The translations under genes and the position numbers were made by a program. The notes beneath the pieces were generated by a model. That model did no database searches, had not been told where the DNA came from, and saw only the letters and a list, made by a program, of their open reading frames with translations. From assembly GCA_011174845.1 (NCBI GenBank), contig DUEW01000002.1, positions 1 to 51,983 of the forward strand: a stretch of 51,983 nucleotides of DNA, read 5' to 3'. Shown here piece after piece: positions 1 through 4,928 of the stretch. The stretch's first letter is position 1. Every line of letters begins with the position of its first letter. This stretch comes from Anaerolineae bacterium. Lineage in GTDB: Bacteria; Chloroflexota; Anaerolineae; Anaerolineales; E44-bin32.

Positions 1-600
1 ACGATGGGATGGACAGGCGTGGTTGGGATCATGGTGCTAGAAAGTGCCAACATCCCAATCCCTAGTGAAGTGACCATGCCGCTCTCAGGATGGTTGTTAA
101 TACAAGCGCAGGGTGGCACGGCCATTCAAGCAGCTTTATGGGGAGGGCTATGGGGTGCGATCGGTTGCACTCTAGGTTCGCTCCTTTCGTATGCATTGGG
201 TGCTTTGGGGGGTAGGCCCTTACTTGATCGCTACGGCAAATATCTCATGATCAGTCGCCATGATCTGGAAGTGGCGGACCGATGGTTTGCTCGCTGGGGA
301 GATTGGACGGCTTTTATATCCCGTTTACTTCCGATCGTGCGCACTTTCATATCTTTTCCAGCTGGAGTAGCACGCACAAGGCTGATACCTTTTACGGCAT
401 ATAGCTTCATTGGCTCTTTTTTATGGTGTGGTGCTCTTGCTTATGGTGGCTACGCCTTTGGGGCACGCTGGGAAGAGTTACGCGCGATCATGAGGCCTTT
501 TGATATCCCGATCGCCATCGTTCTAATTGCTGGCTTCGCTTACTACATTTATCATCACATACGCCGTGGAACTCGCACGTCAAATGAGGAGAAATCCTAG
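1..600 (+). CDS. DedA/SNARE-associated family membrane protein (probably 5'-truncated by the window edge)
   Basis: LESANIPIPSE, F..WG, SRLLPIVRTFISFPAG motifs typical of DedA; frame is open from base 1. Confidence 0.9.
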   Translation, partial: TMGWTGVVGIMVLESANIPIPSEVTMPLSGWLLIQAQGGTAIQAALWGGLWGAIGCTLGSLLSYALGALGGRPLLDRYGKYLMISRHDLEVADRWFARWGDWTAFISRLLPIVRTFISFPAGVARTRLIPFTAYSFIGSFLWCGALAYGGYAFGARWEELRAIMRPFDIPIAIVLIAGFAYYIYHHIRRGTRTSNEEKS

Positions 601-1853
601 TTTACAACCTCCCCTCGATCCGTATGCTCGCCCAGAGTCTCAAGAGGTTTATCGAGTTCTATATGTTCGTGATCCCTCGCTAATTTCCGTGGTATTCGTA
701 CCAGTCCTGCTAACGCTATGCCACTAAGTATCGTGAGTAGGACCACTCCGCTAAAGTTGATCATGTCCAACATCGAGGGAGTAAGATTGACCGATAGGTT
801 TTCACTGGCAATCGCACCGAAGCTGATAACCAAAGCCACCCCGTTCCAAAAGGCATGCATAAAGACAGCACCAAGATACGCGCGTCCGAATGCTCCCCAT
901 TTACGCTTGATTACGGCTTGATTGAGTCCCCAACTTGCTAGACCAGCGGTGAAGCTGTGCATCATGGTGGCGCCAACGCGAGCGATCATTGTCGTGGTCC
1001 ATGCCGGACCGGGCTGAGTCAGGAAGAGAGCTTCAAACAATCCGTAGGCTGCTCCCCCGATCGCGCCACCGATGAAGGCTGAAGCAGGCGATAAGCGTCG
1101 TCGCAGAAGCGGCCAAATGACCATTGTCTTTGCAGCCTCTTCAATCAATGGGACCAGGATCATGACATAGCCTAAGATGATCAAGATGACGCTCGGTTGC
1201 CCAAGGATCTGCAAGGCACTCTCATATGCTTGAGGATCAAGCCATCGGTCCGGATTTGTCATGATATTGACGAATCTTCGACCAACCTCCGTGCTCATTA
1301 AGGACAAAACAATGGCCATTACCGTTGGGATTAAGAAGACAATCTCGAATAAAAATGAGGTGAAGGGGATTGCCCAGACCCCGATAAGGAATTGCCCCCA
1401 AACGCGTCGAGGTGAGTGGAGCGGGCCGTAACGGCGTACGATGATTACAACGATGAGGGCCGGCACCAAGGCAGTCAGGATGTGTGCAGGAGGTCCGAGG
1501 ATGTTGGGGTAGAAACCTAGTTCAAACGCGAAATGCCCCAATGTGAATGTAAGAGGAAGTAAAACGAGGCTTATCAGCCACAAAGATGAAGCAGGACGAG
1601 GTGGAAGAGGTGAATGACCAAGCAGTGCACGTAAGCTCAATACGCTGGTTGGTAGAGCGCATATCCCAACAAATGCGATCGAAGCGGCAGTCGTAATGCT
1701 GTAATCCGGACCATTGCTCATCCCTACCGAATCGGAGAACAGATTAGCGAAGACGATGATCCCAGAGAGAATGATGGCCAGCAAAAAGCCGCCCAGAGAT
1801 GCGATGAAAAGTATCAAGTTCAAGGGATCGCGTGCAGCGACTTTCTCGCTCAT
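597..1853 (-). CDS. PrsW-family intramembrane glutamic/metalloprotease
   Basis: Multi-TM protein with IEEAAK, FE, HSFT and HAFWN motifs; start overlaps the upstream gene's stop (ATGA at 1850-1853). Confidence 0.8.
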   Translation of the reverse strand: MSEKVAARDPLNLILFIASLGGFLLAIILSGIIVFANLFSDSVGMSNGPDYSITTAASIAFVGICALPTSVLSLRALLGHSPLPPRPASSLWLISLVLLPLTFTLGHFAFELGFYPNILGPPAHILTALVPALIVVIIVRRYGPLHSPRRVWGQFLIGVWAIPFTSFLFEIVFLIPTVMAIVLSLMSTEVGRRFVNIMTNPDRWLDPQAYESALQILGQPSVILIILGYVMILVPLIEEAAKTMVIWPLLRRRLSPASAFIGGAIGGAAYGLFEALFLTQPGPAWTTTMIARVGATMMHSFTAGLASWGLNQAVIKRKWGAFGRAYLGAVFMHAFWNGVALVISFGAIASENLSVNLTPSMLDMINFSGVVLLTILSGIALAGLVRIPRKLARDHEHIELDKPLETLGEHTDRGEVVN

Positions 1854-3097
1854 CGAGCCTCGATCGTCACGGATAGGATCACTACTTCAGGAGGGATCAG
1901 CAAGTCTTCTAAGGGTTGTCGTGCCCGTAGACTCTTTAAGAGATCGAGGCCCTCAATCACGCGTCCGAAGATCGTTCGGCTGTTGTTCAGTTCGGGGAGT
2001 GGTGCCAGCGTGATGAAGAATTGACTCCCGTTGGTATCAGGGCCAGAGCTGCTTAGTGCGACCATTCCTGGTTCGTCGAAGGACAGGGCTTCTGTGATTT
2101 CATCAGCGAAATGATAACCCGGCTCGCCGAAACCAGTACCGGTTGGATCCCCGCTCTCAACAAAGCCCTCCGGCACAACGCGATGAAAGAGATTGCCATC
2201 AAACCAACCTTCTTTCGCCAAGAAGATAAAGCTGTTTACTGCTAATGGGGCTTGATCTGGATAGAGTTGTAGGATGATCTCGCCGATATCTAATTCAATG
2301 CGAGCGAAATACTTTGTCTTCTCTTCGAAGGTCATTGGGGGGTAGCTGTCAAATTGCTTGCTTGTTAACAATTCAAGTCGAACGTAGGCTTCCAGATTGG
2401 TCAAGCTTGGTTTAACCTGATATAAAAAATCGTTTATGAATAATAATGGAGTTCCCGGGATCCCTGAAGCGATCCCCTTGTTGAAAGCTTCTTCCATATC
2501 TAGTGCATAACGTCCGCTCTCAATATCGTCTTGGAATCTTTGAACATCCATTTCAAGTTCTTCTGCAGCAGTGATCAGCCATTCCTTGAATTGCTCTGGG
2601 GAGAGTCCGGTCCATTCATTGTATTGTTCGAATAACAAGTCATGCATCGCCCAGAAAGATCCTTGATCACCAGCTGCTTCCGCCGCCTGACCGGCAAGGG
2701 ATGCTTTGTCATGTATCGATATCAAGGGAAAATGGCGAAAAACCGTACGAATGTCCTCAGGATGCCATTTTTCTAACTGCGCCAACACGGGCGCAAGCTG
2801 AGCACAATAAGGTCATTGGAAATCCGCGTATACTAAGAACGTCAAAAAAGCATCATTTAGGCCGCGGCTCCAGTCATCCTCTGAGACGGGAGGGATTGGG
2901 ACCAAAGTAGGTGATGGAATGGGAGGGACTGCAGTCGGAGGAATTGGGGACGGCGTTGATGTTGGGCCAAGCCGGATTGGTGTGCGAGTCGGAGTAGGAG
3001 GGCTTGTAGGTTGTGTTGTCCCAGCAGGTGCACACGCGGGAATGAAGAATGTTAAGCACAGAAGGCTCATCAGTAAAGAGAAATGGGACCTGATCAT
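1850..3097 (-). CDS. Selenoprotein: lipoprotein, Pro/Thr linker, DsbA-like thioredoxin fold (UPYC) and cyclophilin-type PPIase domain, ~415 aa; Sec at TGA 2815-2813
   Basis: ORFs 2813..3172 and 1850..2788 are in the same frame; junction reads LVYADFQ-TGA-PYCAQLAPVLAQLEKWH; VFRHFPL, GIPGTP cis-Pro loop, FHRV..GDPTGTG, NGSQFFIT; lipobox-like IPAC; exact start uncertain. Confidence 0.88.
2775..2799 (-). promoter_or_regulatory. Candidate bacterial SECIS element
   Basis: mRNA AGC-U-UGCGCC-CGUGUU-GGCGCA-GUU: 6-bp upper stem, bulged U, G-containing loop starting about 24 nt after the UGA. Confidence 0.7.
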
Positions 3098-3552
3098 CTT
3101 TGCTGGGAATGATCTCCGATTATTTTCCCTCGCTTGAGCGAGGATTTGTACGTTACATGGTTGAGCATTCATGATGTCTTGACCTCGGGACCATCTGTAC
3201 CTTGCTGCTGGTTGGTGACATCACAAAAGATCGATAAGACAAAACGCTCTCCTTGCATCATTTCATTCGTCACTTCCTGTAGTTCATCCTTGAATAAGAG
3301 GCGCCCATCAAATGGTTACGTCTTTCGAGAATCCCGATGCAATGGCCCGACCAATCCTTCGACCGTTACTCAAGATCATGGCAAGCTTGTCCTGAAAACT
3401 TGTCATCTATGCCTTCCCGCGTGGGTAACATTGTAGCAGGAAATCGATCGGAAAAGTCTACAGAGCTCATCACAGGATTATTGGCGCTGACGCATTCGAT
3501 GTAAGCTCATGAGGCGTGGTTAAACAGGGGAATGTTTCGCTTTATTCTTCAC

Positions 3553-3593: not shown

Positions 3594-3687
3594 GGGAGTG
3601 GTTGGGTCCCGGTGGGCTCCCCGGTCTTCAAAACCGGTGGCGGGCTGCACAGCGGGCCGCGGTGGGTTCGACTCCCATCCACTCCCG
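3594..3687 (+). tRNA. selC: tRNA-Sec (anticodon UCA)
   Basis: 8-bp acceptor stem GGGAGTGG/CCACTCCC, anticodon arm CCGGT-CTTCAAA-ACCGG (TCA at 3628-3630), long variable arm, GGTTCGACTCC T arm, G discriminator, CCA not fully encoded. Confidence 0.95.
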
Positions 3688-3725
3688 CCTTGTTATTCAT
3701 AAGGATGATGATGGAGTCACACCAA

Positions 3726-4928
3726 ATGAGCGCTTCGTCTGAGTTGGTAGATCGTTTGCTCCCAGTGGTACGGCAAGTAATGTCAATCCGTGAGATGACC
3801 TCGGGTGGTGCAGAACATCGCTTCGCTGCACGATTTCGTGGCAGGTTGTATTTTGATGCAGACGAAGTGTACGATCGTCTTCTTCCTGTCTTCGCCCGTG
3901 AAGATACCACTTTGGTGTTACGTTCTGAGGATGAAGAACATATCATTTTAGCGATCCCTGGCCTCATCCGCCCAGGACCGTCTAATCCGTGGATCAACTT
4001 AGGGTTGTTCTTGTTGACATTGTTCAGCATGCTTCTGGCTGGTGCCATGTATAGCTATCAGGGACCAGAACCCGATACGATGGCGGGATATTTTATCTAC
4101 CTTCTACGTGATATTCCCCGGGGTGTGCCATTCGCGGTCAGTATGCTCGCTATCCTGCTTGCTCATGAATTTGGTCACTATCTCGCAGCCAGATATCACA
4201 AAACAGCTGTAACTCTGCCGTATTTCATCCCCCTTCCATTCAGTCCGCTCGGGACGCTTGGAGCCGCGATCCGATTGAAGGAACCGCCGAGGAATAAACG
4301 AGTATTGTTGGACATAGGTATCGCGGGTCCTTTGGCTGGTTTGATGGTCGCAATCCCGATTCTGATCCTTGGCCTCTCACTTTCAGACCTTGGCACGTTG
4401 CCGTCAACCCCTGATGCGTGGAGAAATCAGGTGTTGGAAGGGAATTCCGTGCTCTACTTGGCACTCAAGTACTTGGTTAAAGGCCAACTTCTGCCGGCTC
4501 CATTGGACTATGGTGGAGTTGCTCCCCTCCTGTATTGGGTGCGATATTTCTTCATTGGTCTCCCGCTACCTTACGGTGGTCTCGATGTGTTCATGCATCC
4601 CCTTGCATGGTCAGGTTGGGCGGGTTTGCTGGTGACCGCATTGAACCTCATCCCTGCCGGCCAATTGGATGGAGGACATATCAGCTATGTCCTGTTTGGT
4701 CATAAGGCTACAAAACTGGTGCCTTACATCATCGTCGCCTTGGTCCTATTGGGAATCTTTTGGTGGGGTTGGCTTCTCTGGGCAGGTTTGATTTTCTTCC
4801 TTGGTCGTGTATACGCTCAACCTCTAGACGATATCACTCCCCTCGATAAACGTCGGAGAACCTTAGCGATCCTTGGGTTGATCGTTTTTGTCCTGGTTTT
4901 CACACCCGTTCCGCTGACTGGGTTCTAA
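3726..4928 (+). CDS. Site-2 protease (M50 family) membrane zinc metalloprotease
   Basis: HEFGH, IAGPLAG, NLIPAGQLDGGH motifs; start moved to ATG 3726 (GGAG RBS) because the longer ORF overlaps the tRNA-Sec. Confidence 0.9.
   Translation: MSASSELVDRLLPVVRQVMSIREMTSGGAEHRFAARFRGRLYFDADEVYDRLLPVFAREDTTLVLRSEDEEHIILAIPGLIRPGPSNPWINLGLFLLTLFSMLLAGAMYSYQGPEPDTMAGYFIYLLRDIPRGVPFAVSMLAILLAHEFGHYLAARYHKTAVTLPYFIPLPFSPLGTLGAAIRLKEPPRNKRVLLDIGIAGPLAGLMVAIPILILGLSLSDLGTLPSTPDAWRNQVLEGNSVLYLALKYLVKGQLLPAPLDYGGVAPLLYWVRYFFIGLPLPYGGLDVFMHPLAWSGWAGLLVTALNLIPAGQLDGGHISYVLFGHKATKLVPYIIVALVLLGIFWWGWLLWAGLIFFLGRVYAQPLDDITPLDKRRRTLAILGLIVFVLVFTPVPLTGF

Follow-up and report, generated by a model that had tools for sequence, protein, structure and literature searches.

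A conserved gene for a predicted lipid-anchored selenoprotein with DsbA-like and cyclophilin-like domains in an Anaerolineae bacterium

The 51,983-nucleotide stretch of contig DUEW01000002.1 of an Anaerolineae bacterium (GenBank assembly GCA_011174845.1), referred to here as the window, includes on its minus strand, between nucleotides 1850 and 3097, what we consider with high confidence to be a genuine and conserved selenoprotein gene, both with respect to selenocysteine (Sec) decoding and to the architecture of its product. The predicted protein consists of a lipoprotein signal peptide, a Pro/Thr-rich linker, a DsbA-like thioredoxin-fold domain and a cyclophilin-like domain, and its Sec codon is the in-frame TGA at nucleotides 2813 to 2815, which defines residue 95 and the first position of a U-P-Y-C motif. 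As judged from sequence comparison, Sec is almost certainly inserted at this UGA. The source genome has a size of 3.13 Mb distributed in 233 contigs, and is 80.8% complete with 1.16% contamination.

Translation using genetic code table 11 yields two minus-strand open reading frames (ORFs), 2813..3172 and 1850..2788. Reading TGA as Sec (U) joins both ORFs in one frame, which at the junction has the sequence ...FLVYADFQ-U-PYCAQLAPVLAQLEK... and ends with ...IEAR followed by a TGA stop codon (nucleotides 1850-1852). The joined protein has 415 amino acids; its N-terminus is MIRSHFSLLMSLLCLTFFIPAC..., followed by the Pro/Thr linker. Counted from the ATG at 3097, the TGA at 2813-2815 is codon 95 of 415 and the sole stop that precedes the terminal one. 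An alternative upstream ATG at nucleotide 3172 would define a protein of 440 amino acids, and the close homologues P0003 to P0005 span this upstream ATG; in a six-frame search the read-through frame has 456 codons with one TGA. An earlier note on this DNA, made from the sequence alone, had proposed that a single gene was split by the ORF caller and that the TGA occupies the place of the first Cys of a DsbA CxxC motif (FQ-U-PYC). The first proposal is borne out by the single frame with only one internal stop obtained under TGA=U, and the second by that frame together with the aligned homologues. The TGA is covered with 0 differences by contigs of three sequencing runs from three studies, one of which may be the source sample, and the contig of run X4 stops short of it.

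The codon aligned to the window TGA was read throughout the order and the class. A six-frame search of 60 relatives from the order plus the own genome produced matches in 61 of 61 and 51 near-full-length orthologue rows, 13 of which have exactly one TGA. Fifty loci were retrieved, the partial row of genome G009 being left out, and the motif was found to be UxxC in 13, CxxC in 20, SxxC in five, AxxC in three, CxxS in one, and Cys-less in seven; in the remaining locus (L051, genome G033) the codon is masked by N and unreadable. UxxC or CxxC is kept in 33 of the 49 readable orthologues. The alternation of TGA, TGC and TGT between conserved flanks, which the earlier note had suggested looking for, was found across these loci together with other codons. 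The TGA is shared with other genomes: all five species of the genus, with 64-100% protein identity, carry it, and in the order as a whole 12 genomes besides this one have it at this codon. The closest metagenome proteins, which are 83-84% identical, read CPYC. A sample of 301 genomes of the class included 67 with an orthologue (E ≤ 1e-60). These gave 68 rows, 33 of them with one TGA; in all 32 TGA rows other than that of the window the TGA lies inside the motif [FY]Q-TGA-P-x-C. The shared TGA position extends down to 38% protein identity. As a separate observation, the Cys-less motifs are AAQS, PSSS, SPNA, SPAG, DPSS and GQYD (loci L028, L032, L034, L037, L041, L058 and L059), all within a full-length frame, and nine further orthologues have one Cys only.

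Comparison of the 27 codons upstream with the 320 codons downstream of the TGA in unsaturated pairs gave ratios of nonsynonymous to synonymous substitution (dN/dS) of 0.12 vs 0.13 and 0.19 vs 0.18, indicating that purifying selection is the same on either side of the TGA. The proportion of synonymous differences (pS) ranges from 0.35 to 0.84, yet the TGA is constant in 12 of 12 sequences. These data bear on the possibility that the TGA is a true stop codon, in which case the region would be a decayed gene, or would code for a lipoprotein stub of about 94 to 119 amino acids plus a 312-amino acid cytoplasmic "peptidylprolyl isomerase" starting at the GTG at nucleotide 2788. Such an arrangement agrees with the two ORFs obtained under table 11 and with the state of the databases, where 23 of the 120 best matches are truncated entries of 310-317 amino acids that start inside the sequence APVLAQL, one of them named "peptidylprolyl isomerase"; these entries also confirm that standard annotation splits the gene, as had been predicted. 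We nevertheless regard a true stop as highly improbable: the TGA is found at the same codon in 13 genomes of the order and 32 rows of the class, down to the identity level mentioned above, both sides have equal dN/dS values while synonymous sites approach saturation, and full-length Cys forms are the rule elsewhere. Furthermore, the 312-amino acid piece would have no signal peptide, and its thioredoxin fold would be without strand beta-1 and without a nucleophile; in addition, the GTG at 2788 falls inside the conserved hairpin described next.

Bacterial selenocysteine insertion sequence (SECIS) elements are hairpins located close after the UGA with G/U in the apical loop. A SECIS-type hairpin is encoded by nucleotides 2777 to 2796 on the minus strand. 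It begins 16 nt past the UGA, within the codons for L-A-P-V-L-A-Q, and has a 7-bp stem (UUGCGCC/GGCGCAG) and a 6-nt loop (CGUGUU). Unaided RNAalifold analysis of 11 TGA-form sequences identified one hairpin, at alignment columns 29-48, with the loop CGUGYU. Stem cells are paired in 100% of the cases in these 11 sequences and in 96.6% when 17 sequences are considered. The 17 sequences include compensatory changes at three stem pairs, and the pair formed by columns 33 and 44 occurs as GC, AU, UA, CG and GU. The covariation score was reached by 0 of 500 shuffles, and pairing falls to 28-57% of cells when the 3′ partner is slid by 1-3 columns. The compensating changes partly alter the amino acid sequence, from APVLAQ to APVLVQ or ASVLMQ, and this cost at the protein level points to selection on the RNA. 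All 13 TGA forms keep the hairpin, 12 of them with 7/7 bp and one with 6/7 bp; among the forms that lack the TGA, 34 of the 36 that could be read have 4 bp or fewer and two SxxC forms have 6 bp. In one genus the Sec form and the Cys form are found in sister species (100/100 support), and the Cys form has only 3/7 pairs. A Ser form, locus L042 of genome G051 (TCT codon, SFEC), keeps the near-perfect hairpin UUGCGCC GAUACU GGCGCGC with 6/7 bp, which may be a fossil SECIS remaining after loss of Sec.

The window-type hairpin is absent from other orders of the class, where 0 to 5 of the 7 pairs can be formed. A different conserved hairpin is predicted there about 30 nt past the UGA, with a GCGUC/GACGC-type stem and a UGGUA loop (columns 43-61 of alignment A4; loci L066-L094) and with compensatory changes at 7 of 11 predicted pairs. 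Twenty-eight class sequences are without the window-type hairpin, and alignment A4 consists of 23 of them; the rows L065, L092, L093, L095 and L096, which come from one genus and are nearly identical, were omitted. Two SECIS registers are therefore present in one gene family, and both occur inside one taxonomic family (f66).

The machinery for Sec incorporation was identified in the genome by profile search. The selA, selB and selD genes, which the earlier note had singled out as the ones to look for, are all present with 468.7, 346.3 and 387.5 bits, respectively, all above the curated cut-offs, and a gene for tRNA-Sec (selC) was found in addition. The latter occupies nucleotides 3594 to 3689 on the plus strand, was detected by ARAGORN and matches Rfam RF01852 with 76.3 bits (gathering threshold 47). 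It is the only tRNA-Sec found by ARAGORN in the assembly and is located, in divergent orientation, about 420 nt upstream of the ATG at 3172. Because it shares a contig with the selenoprotein gene, the Sec trait is not an artefact of binning. A second SelD, represented by an N-terminal piece cut by the end of contig C5 (C5:69935-70189), has the sequence ...TCAG-TGA-ASK...; the CAG-TGA in this piece indicates that Sec is used elsewhere in the genome. The stretch after this TGA has no obvious likeness to the hairpin of the window and its fold is not better than those of shuffled sequences (z 0.41). The genome has two SelD genes, and the copy at C223:19146-20072 has no stop and lies inside a 756-codon open frame, which suggests that it codes for a fusion protein.

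The results on the hairpin and the machinery also bear on a translation of the TGA in which no Sec is involved, either through near-cognate decoding as Trp or Cys or through a reassigned code. Nothing specific was found in its favour, and we consider it barely credible. The gene itself ends in TGA (1850-1852) and neighbouring genes use TGA stops, a complete Sec machinery including tRNA-Sec is present, the hairpin is tied to the TGA forms, and the position aligns with Cys in the homologues, the classic signature of Sec.

The product of the gene, with the TGA read as Sec, has the sequence characteristics of an exported protein. The signal peptide is encoded by nucleotides 3032 to 3097 (minus strand) and was defined by homologue alignment and by a helix of residues 3-22 in the structural model; it ends in the lipobox I-P-A-C with Cys22. 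All 62 full-length homologues share this Cys and have A, G or S at -1; the Pro at -2 in the window protein is unusual. Lgt (215.6 bits) and LspA (122 bits) are encoded in the genome, and by its sequence the protein is predicted to be a bacterial lipoprotein. Next comes the Pro/Thr-rich low-complexity linker (nucleotides 2876 to 3031, minus strand), in which the model shows no secondary structure for residues 23-70 and predicted local distance difference test (pLDDT) values of 50-68. The AlphaFold2 model as a whole is a confident one, with a pLDDT of 91.0 and a predicted template modelling score (pTM) of 0.80; besides this disordered linker it shows a thioredoxin fold that has a helical insert, and a cyclophilin barrel.

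The DsbA-like domain is encoded by nucleotides 2384 to 2875 (minus strand) and includes U95-P-Y-C98 and a T216-P217 loop. It matches Pfam PF13462 (Thioredoxin_4; E 2.8e-16, 60.6 bits, cut-off 23.2) and PF01323 (DSBA; E 1.6e-11, 44.8 bits, cut-off 25.6). In the model U95-P-Y-C98 opens a helix of residues 96-111, and a helical insert, residues 132-210, is found between strands. P217, which we take to be the cis-Pro of the T-P loop, is present in 62 of 62 homologues and T216 in 50 of 62. This domain was characterised by sequence search, which gave as its nearest relatives of solved structure the extracytoplasmic DsbA-like proteins 3gyk, 4n30, 4pwo, 7unn, BdbD (3eu3) and ScsC (4gxz/4xvw); the top 50 PDB matches in a Foldseek search with the whole model are cyclophilins only. 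The details first noticed in the sequence, the IPAC lipobox, the Pro/Thr linker, VFRHFPL and the GTP of the T-P loop, all hold in the joined sequence of about 415 amino acids.

The C-terminal part, nucleotides 1871 to 2305 (minus strand), codes for a cyclophilin-like domain (PF00160, Pro_isomerase; E 1.9e-35, 122.9 bits, cut-off 21.7) with a diverged active site. The Foldseek match to cyclophilins has an E of 1.6e-15, and Pfam matches both the DsbA-like and the cyclophilin domain in the joined protein. The positions of human CypA presumed to be the catalytic and substrate-binding set are R55, F60, Q63, N102, Q111, F113, W121 and H126. When compared to a canonical stand-alone paralogue encoded on contig C19, the window protein retains the Arg, Gln111 and Phe113. 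In the stretch DFM F60 is replaced by G, and a Phe is found one residue further on; Q63 (QSGDP) is replaced by E and N102 (MANAG) by S; in PWLDDRH W121 is replaced by E and H126 by R. With active-site residues diverged in this way, the label of prolyl isomerase is not justified; the assignment is one of fold, isomerase activity is doubtful, and a role in binding proline peptides or substrates is the safer inference. Of the earlier proposal that redox folding and prolyl isomerisation are combined in one exported chain, the fusion, the lipobox and both folds stand, but the peptidylprolyl isomerase (PPIase) residues are partly lost.

A number of results weigh against a Sec-dependent redox enzyme with the functions outlined so far. 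No RNA run is listed among the sequencing runs that hold the stretch, and the genome is a bin (233 contigs, 80.8% complete) in which selA, selB and selD are located on other contigs. The closest relatives use Cys, and the motif is entirely devoid of Cys in seven of the 50 orthologues. Sec is dispensable in the family, and this, together with the Cys-less orthologues, weakens the case for redox catalysis as the core function. The folding energy of the single sequence around the hairpin is within that of shuffled ones, with z values of -1.61 (10 of 200 shuffles as good) and -0.85 (38 of 200), so that the case for a SECIS is made by the comparison among sequences. No Rfam family matches the hairpin, and no SECIS-type match was obtained for nucleotides 2650 to 2900 at the gathering threshold or with an E of up to 10, a result that is expected for a short bacterial SECIS and counts neither way. 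Finally, the active-site changes of the cyclophilin-like domain extend to the family, the catalytic Arg being present in only 30 of 62 members and the His position being occupied by Arg in 58 of 62.

The selenoprotein gene is flanked by two genes for intramembrane proteases, one of the PrsW family and one of peptidase family M50. The PrsW-family gene (nucleotides 597 to 1853, minus strand; Pfam PF13367, E 5e-10) has an ATG that overlaps the stop codon of the selenoprotein gene (ATGA), and for this reason both genes are probably co-transcribed. A PrsW-family gene follows immediately, in the same orientation, in 38 of the 50 orthologous loci, and these 38 come from several families of the order. 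At its other end, the PrsW-like gene is convergent with a gene for a VTT/DedA-family membrane protein (nucleotides 4 to 600, plus strand), which overlaps its stop by 4 bases. The M50 (site-2-protease family) gene is found at nucleotides 3612 to 4928 of the plus strand (Pfam PF02163, E 1.1e-19); since the start of the listed ORF overlaps the tRNA-Sec gene, the true start is located further in. Within flanks of only about 1.5 kb, 29 of 34 loci of the same family have the tRNA-Sec/M50 neighbourhood, as against 0 of 16 from other families. As it accompanies Sec, Cys or Ser forms alike, this adjacency is a case of family-level synteny and is not specific for Sec.

Candidate redox partners are also encoded in the genome. 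A VKOR homologue is fused to a thioredoxin-like domain with a CPHC motif (contig C42; L097, nucleotides 510 to 1745, minus strand), and a membrane protein of the CcdA/DsbD type is present; no DsbB homologue was found in this 80.8%-complete genome. On the basis of these homologies an oxidising partner (VKOR) and a reducing partner (CcdA) would both be available, and either redox direction seems possible. The VKOR fusion has an N-terminal secreted domain and a Pro/Thr-rich linker that resembles that of the selenoprotein.

Taken together, these features are consistent with a mechanism in which the ribosome would decode the UGA at 2813-2815 as Sec after SelB binds the hairpin at 2777-2796 and delivers Sec-tRNA(Sec), the tRNA being encoded on the same contig. 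Cys22 would hold the mature protein on the outer face of the cytoplasmic membrane through the Pro/Thr linker. There the DsbA domain, of the BdbD/ScsC type, would expose the Sec nucleophile of U-P-Y-C, pack against the cyclophilin-fold domain and carry out fast thiol-disulfide (selenenylsulfide) exchange on exported proteins. The cyclophilin-like domain would act mainly as a module for binding proline peptides or substrates, and the protein probably functions jointly with the co-transcribed PrsW-family membrane protease. We infer that the protein is probably lipid-anchored, catalyses thiol-disulfide exchange in a Sec-dependent manner, binds substrates through its cyclophilin-like domain and cooperates with PrsW, a reading in which we have somewhat more than even confidence.

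The same neighbourhood could also mean that the selenoprotein is a sensor of redox state or unfolded proteins, or an adaptor, that gates the PrsW-family protease, and in loci of the same family the M50 protease, and that oxidative folding is not its main role. In favour of such a function, a PrsW-like gene comes next in 38 of 50 loci from several families and an M50 gene is found alongside in 29 of 50, the catalytic residues of the cyclophilin domain are not conserved, and lipobox, fold and partner gene persist where the redox motif has been lost (7 of 50) or reduced to a single Cys (9 of 50). PrsW and an M50 protease act in one cascade in the activation of Bacillus subtilis sigma-W; the idea of a single cascade comes from that system and not from the present analysis. 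Moreover, a gene neighbourhood by itself is no proof of interaction, and the conservation of UxxC or CxxC in 33 of the 49 readable orthologues fits catalysis. We consider a sensor or adaptor unlikely, and an exchange catalyst that works together with PrsW remains the reading that we prefer.

Six changes of the Sec state are required on a maximum-likelihood tree built from the 50 orthologues (bootstrap range 5-7), and well-supported branches force at least four. A single origin of Sec is allowed by 0% of the bootstrap trees. Sec forms of distant families have the same hairpin sequence, which speaks for an old Sec state that was replaced several times, although the tree has no root with regard to this point. 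A tentative and rather improbable way of joining these observations would be that Sec is ancestral in a class-wide family of extracytoplasmic lipoprotein foldases or sensors of Anaerolineae-type Chloroflexota, that the redox site has undergone serial decay from Sec to Cys, to Ser or Ala and then to none, and that the SECIS was gained in two registers. The core job of the family might then lie in delivering substrates or in a redox-gated control over intramembrane proteolysis, and not in disulfide formation, because the lipobox, the cyclophilin-like domain and the PrsW partner persist where the redox site is gone.

This selenoprotein architecture is apparently common, as about half of the orthologues in the 301-genome sample of the class carry the TGA. 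No curated NCBIfam model covers the fusion and, as a consequence, public records of the Sec forms are devoid of the signal peptide and the active site. The finding is useful for the annotation of selenoproteomes. It also places Sec in a folding catalyst that is predicted to be exported and tethered to the membrane, in a phylum that has been studied little and is found in marine sediment and seawater metagenomes. The presence of Sec, Cys, Ser and Cys-less forms among close relatives, together with the two SECIS registers, amounts to a natural experiment, and the family could be used to study when and why Sec is retained and how the evolution of a SECIS is coupled to that of the overlapping protein sequence.

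UxxC DsbA-like selenoproteins are known since the Sargasso Sea metagenome, where they were assigned to COG2761 (PMC1088965), and the main text of a 2026 review lists a "DsbA-like form 1" (PF01323, UxxC) and a "DsbG-like" form (NF041057, UxxC) (PMC13188914). The words cyclophilin and prolyl and the accession PF00160 do not occur in the main text of that review, and the available part of a preprint on new selenoprotein families does not mention cyclophilin or prolyl isomerase. A search of full-text literature, which covers articles apart from their supplementary tables, returned no description of a DsbA-cyclophilin selenoprotein. The earlier note had left undecided if the fusion had been described: as a selenoprotein it was not found in the literature searched, but UxxC DsbA-like and DsbG-like selenoproteins and a (seleno)lipoprotein family are already known. 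The fusion architecture is thus unannotated, the Sec-containing DsbA-like kind is an established one, and no new principle is involved.

The window protein shares with DsbA-like form 1 the thioredoxin-fold DsbA-like domain, the Sec at the first position of UxxC, a hairpin after the UGA and widespread Cys homologues. It differs from that form (COG2761) in that its domain is matched best by PF13462 and in the addition of a lipoprotein signal, a Pro/Thr linker and a cyclophilin-like domain. NF041057 is described as the Rcas_1661 family thioredoxin-like (seleno)lipoprotein, and its profile aligns with residues 14-229 of the window protein, both having a lipoprotein signal followed by a UxxC thioredoxin-like domain. 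That family, however, has 247 positions and no cyclophilin domain, and the window protein reaches 70.3 bits (63.7 in the six-frame search) against a cut-off of 190; it is a relative of NF041057 and not a member. The other match to NF041057 in the genome, on contig C120, has no stop and with 144.2 bits is also below the cut-off.

The similarity to BdbD, MdbA and ScsC (3eu3, 4pwo, 7unn, 4gxz and 4xvw; E 2e-8 to 3e-5) includes the CP[YF]C-type motif and the T-P loop, but these proteins all use Cys and none has a cyclophilin domain. BdbD, MdbA and ScsC function as oxidases or as copper-stress reductases. Lipid-anchored extracytoplasmic foldases are likewise well established, in the form of the lipoprotein PPIases of monoderm bacteria (PrsA, SlrA). 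The cyclophilin-like domain resembles the cyclophilin PPIases PPIL1/Ppi1 and Mycobacterium tuberculosis PpiA (1w74), with target-normalised TM values of 0.79-0.88 and 30-39% identity, and differs from them in its altered active-site positions and in its fusion to a redox domain.

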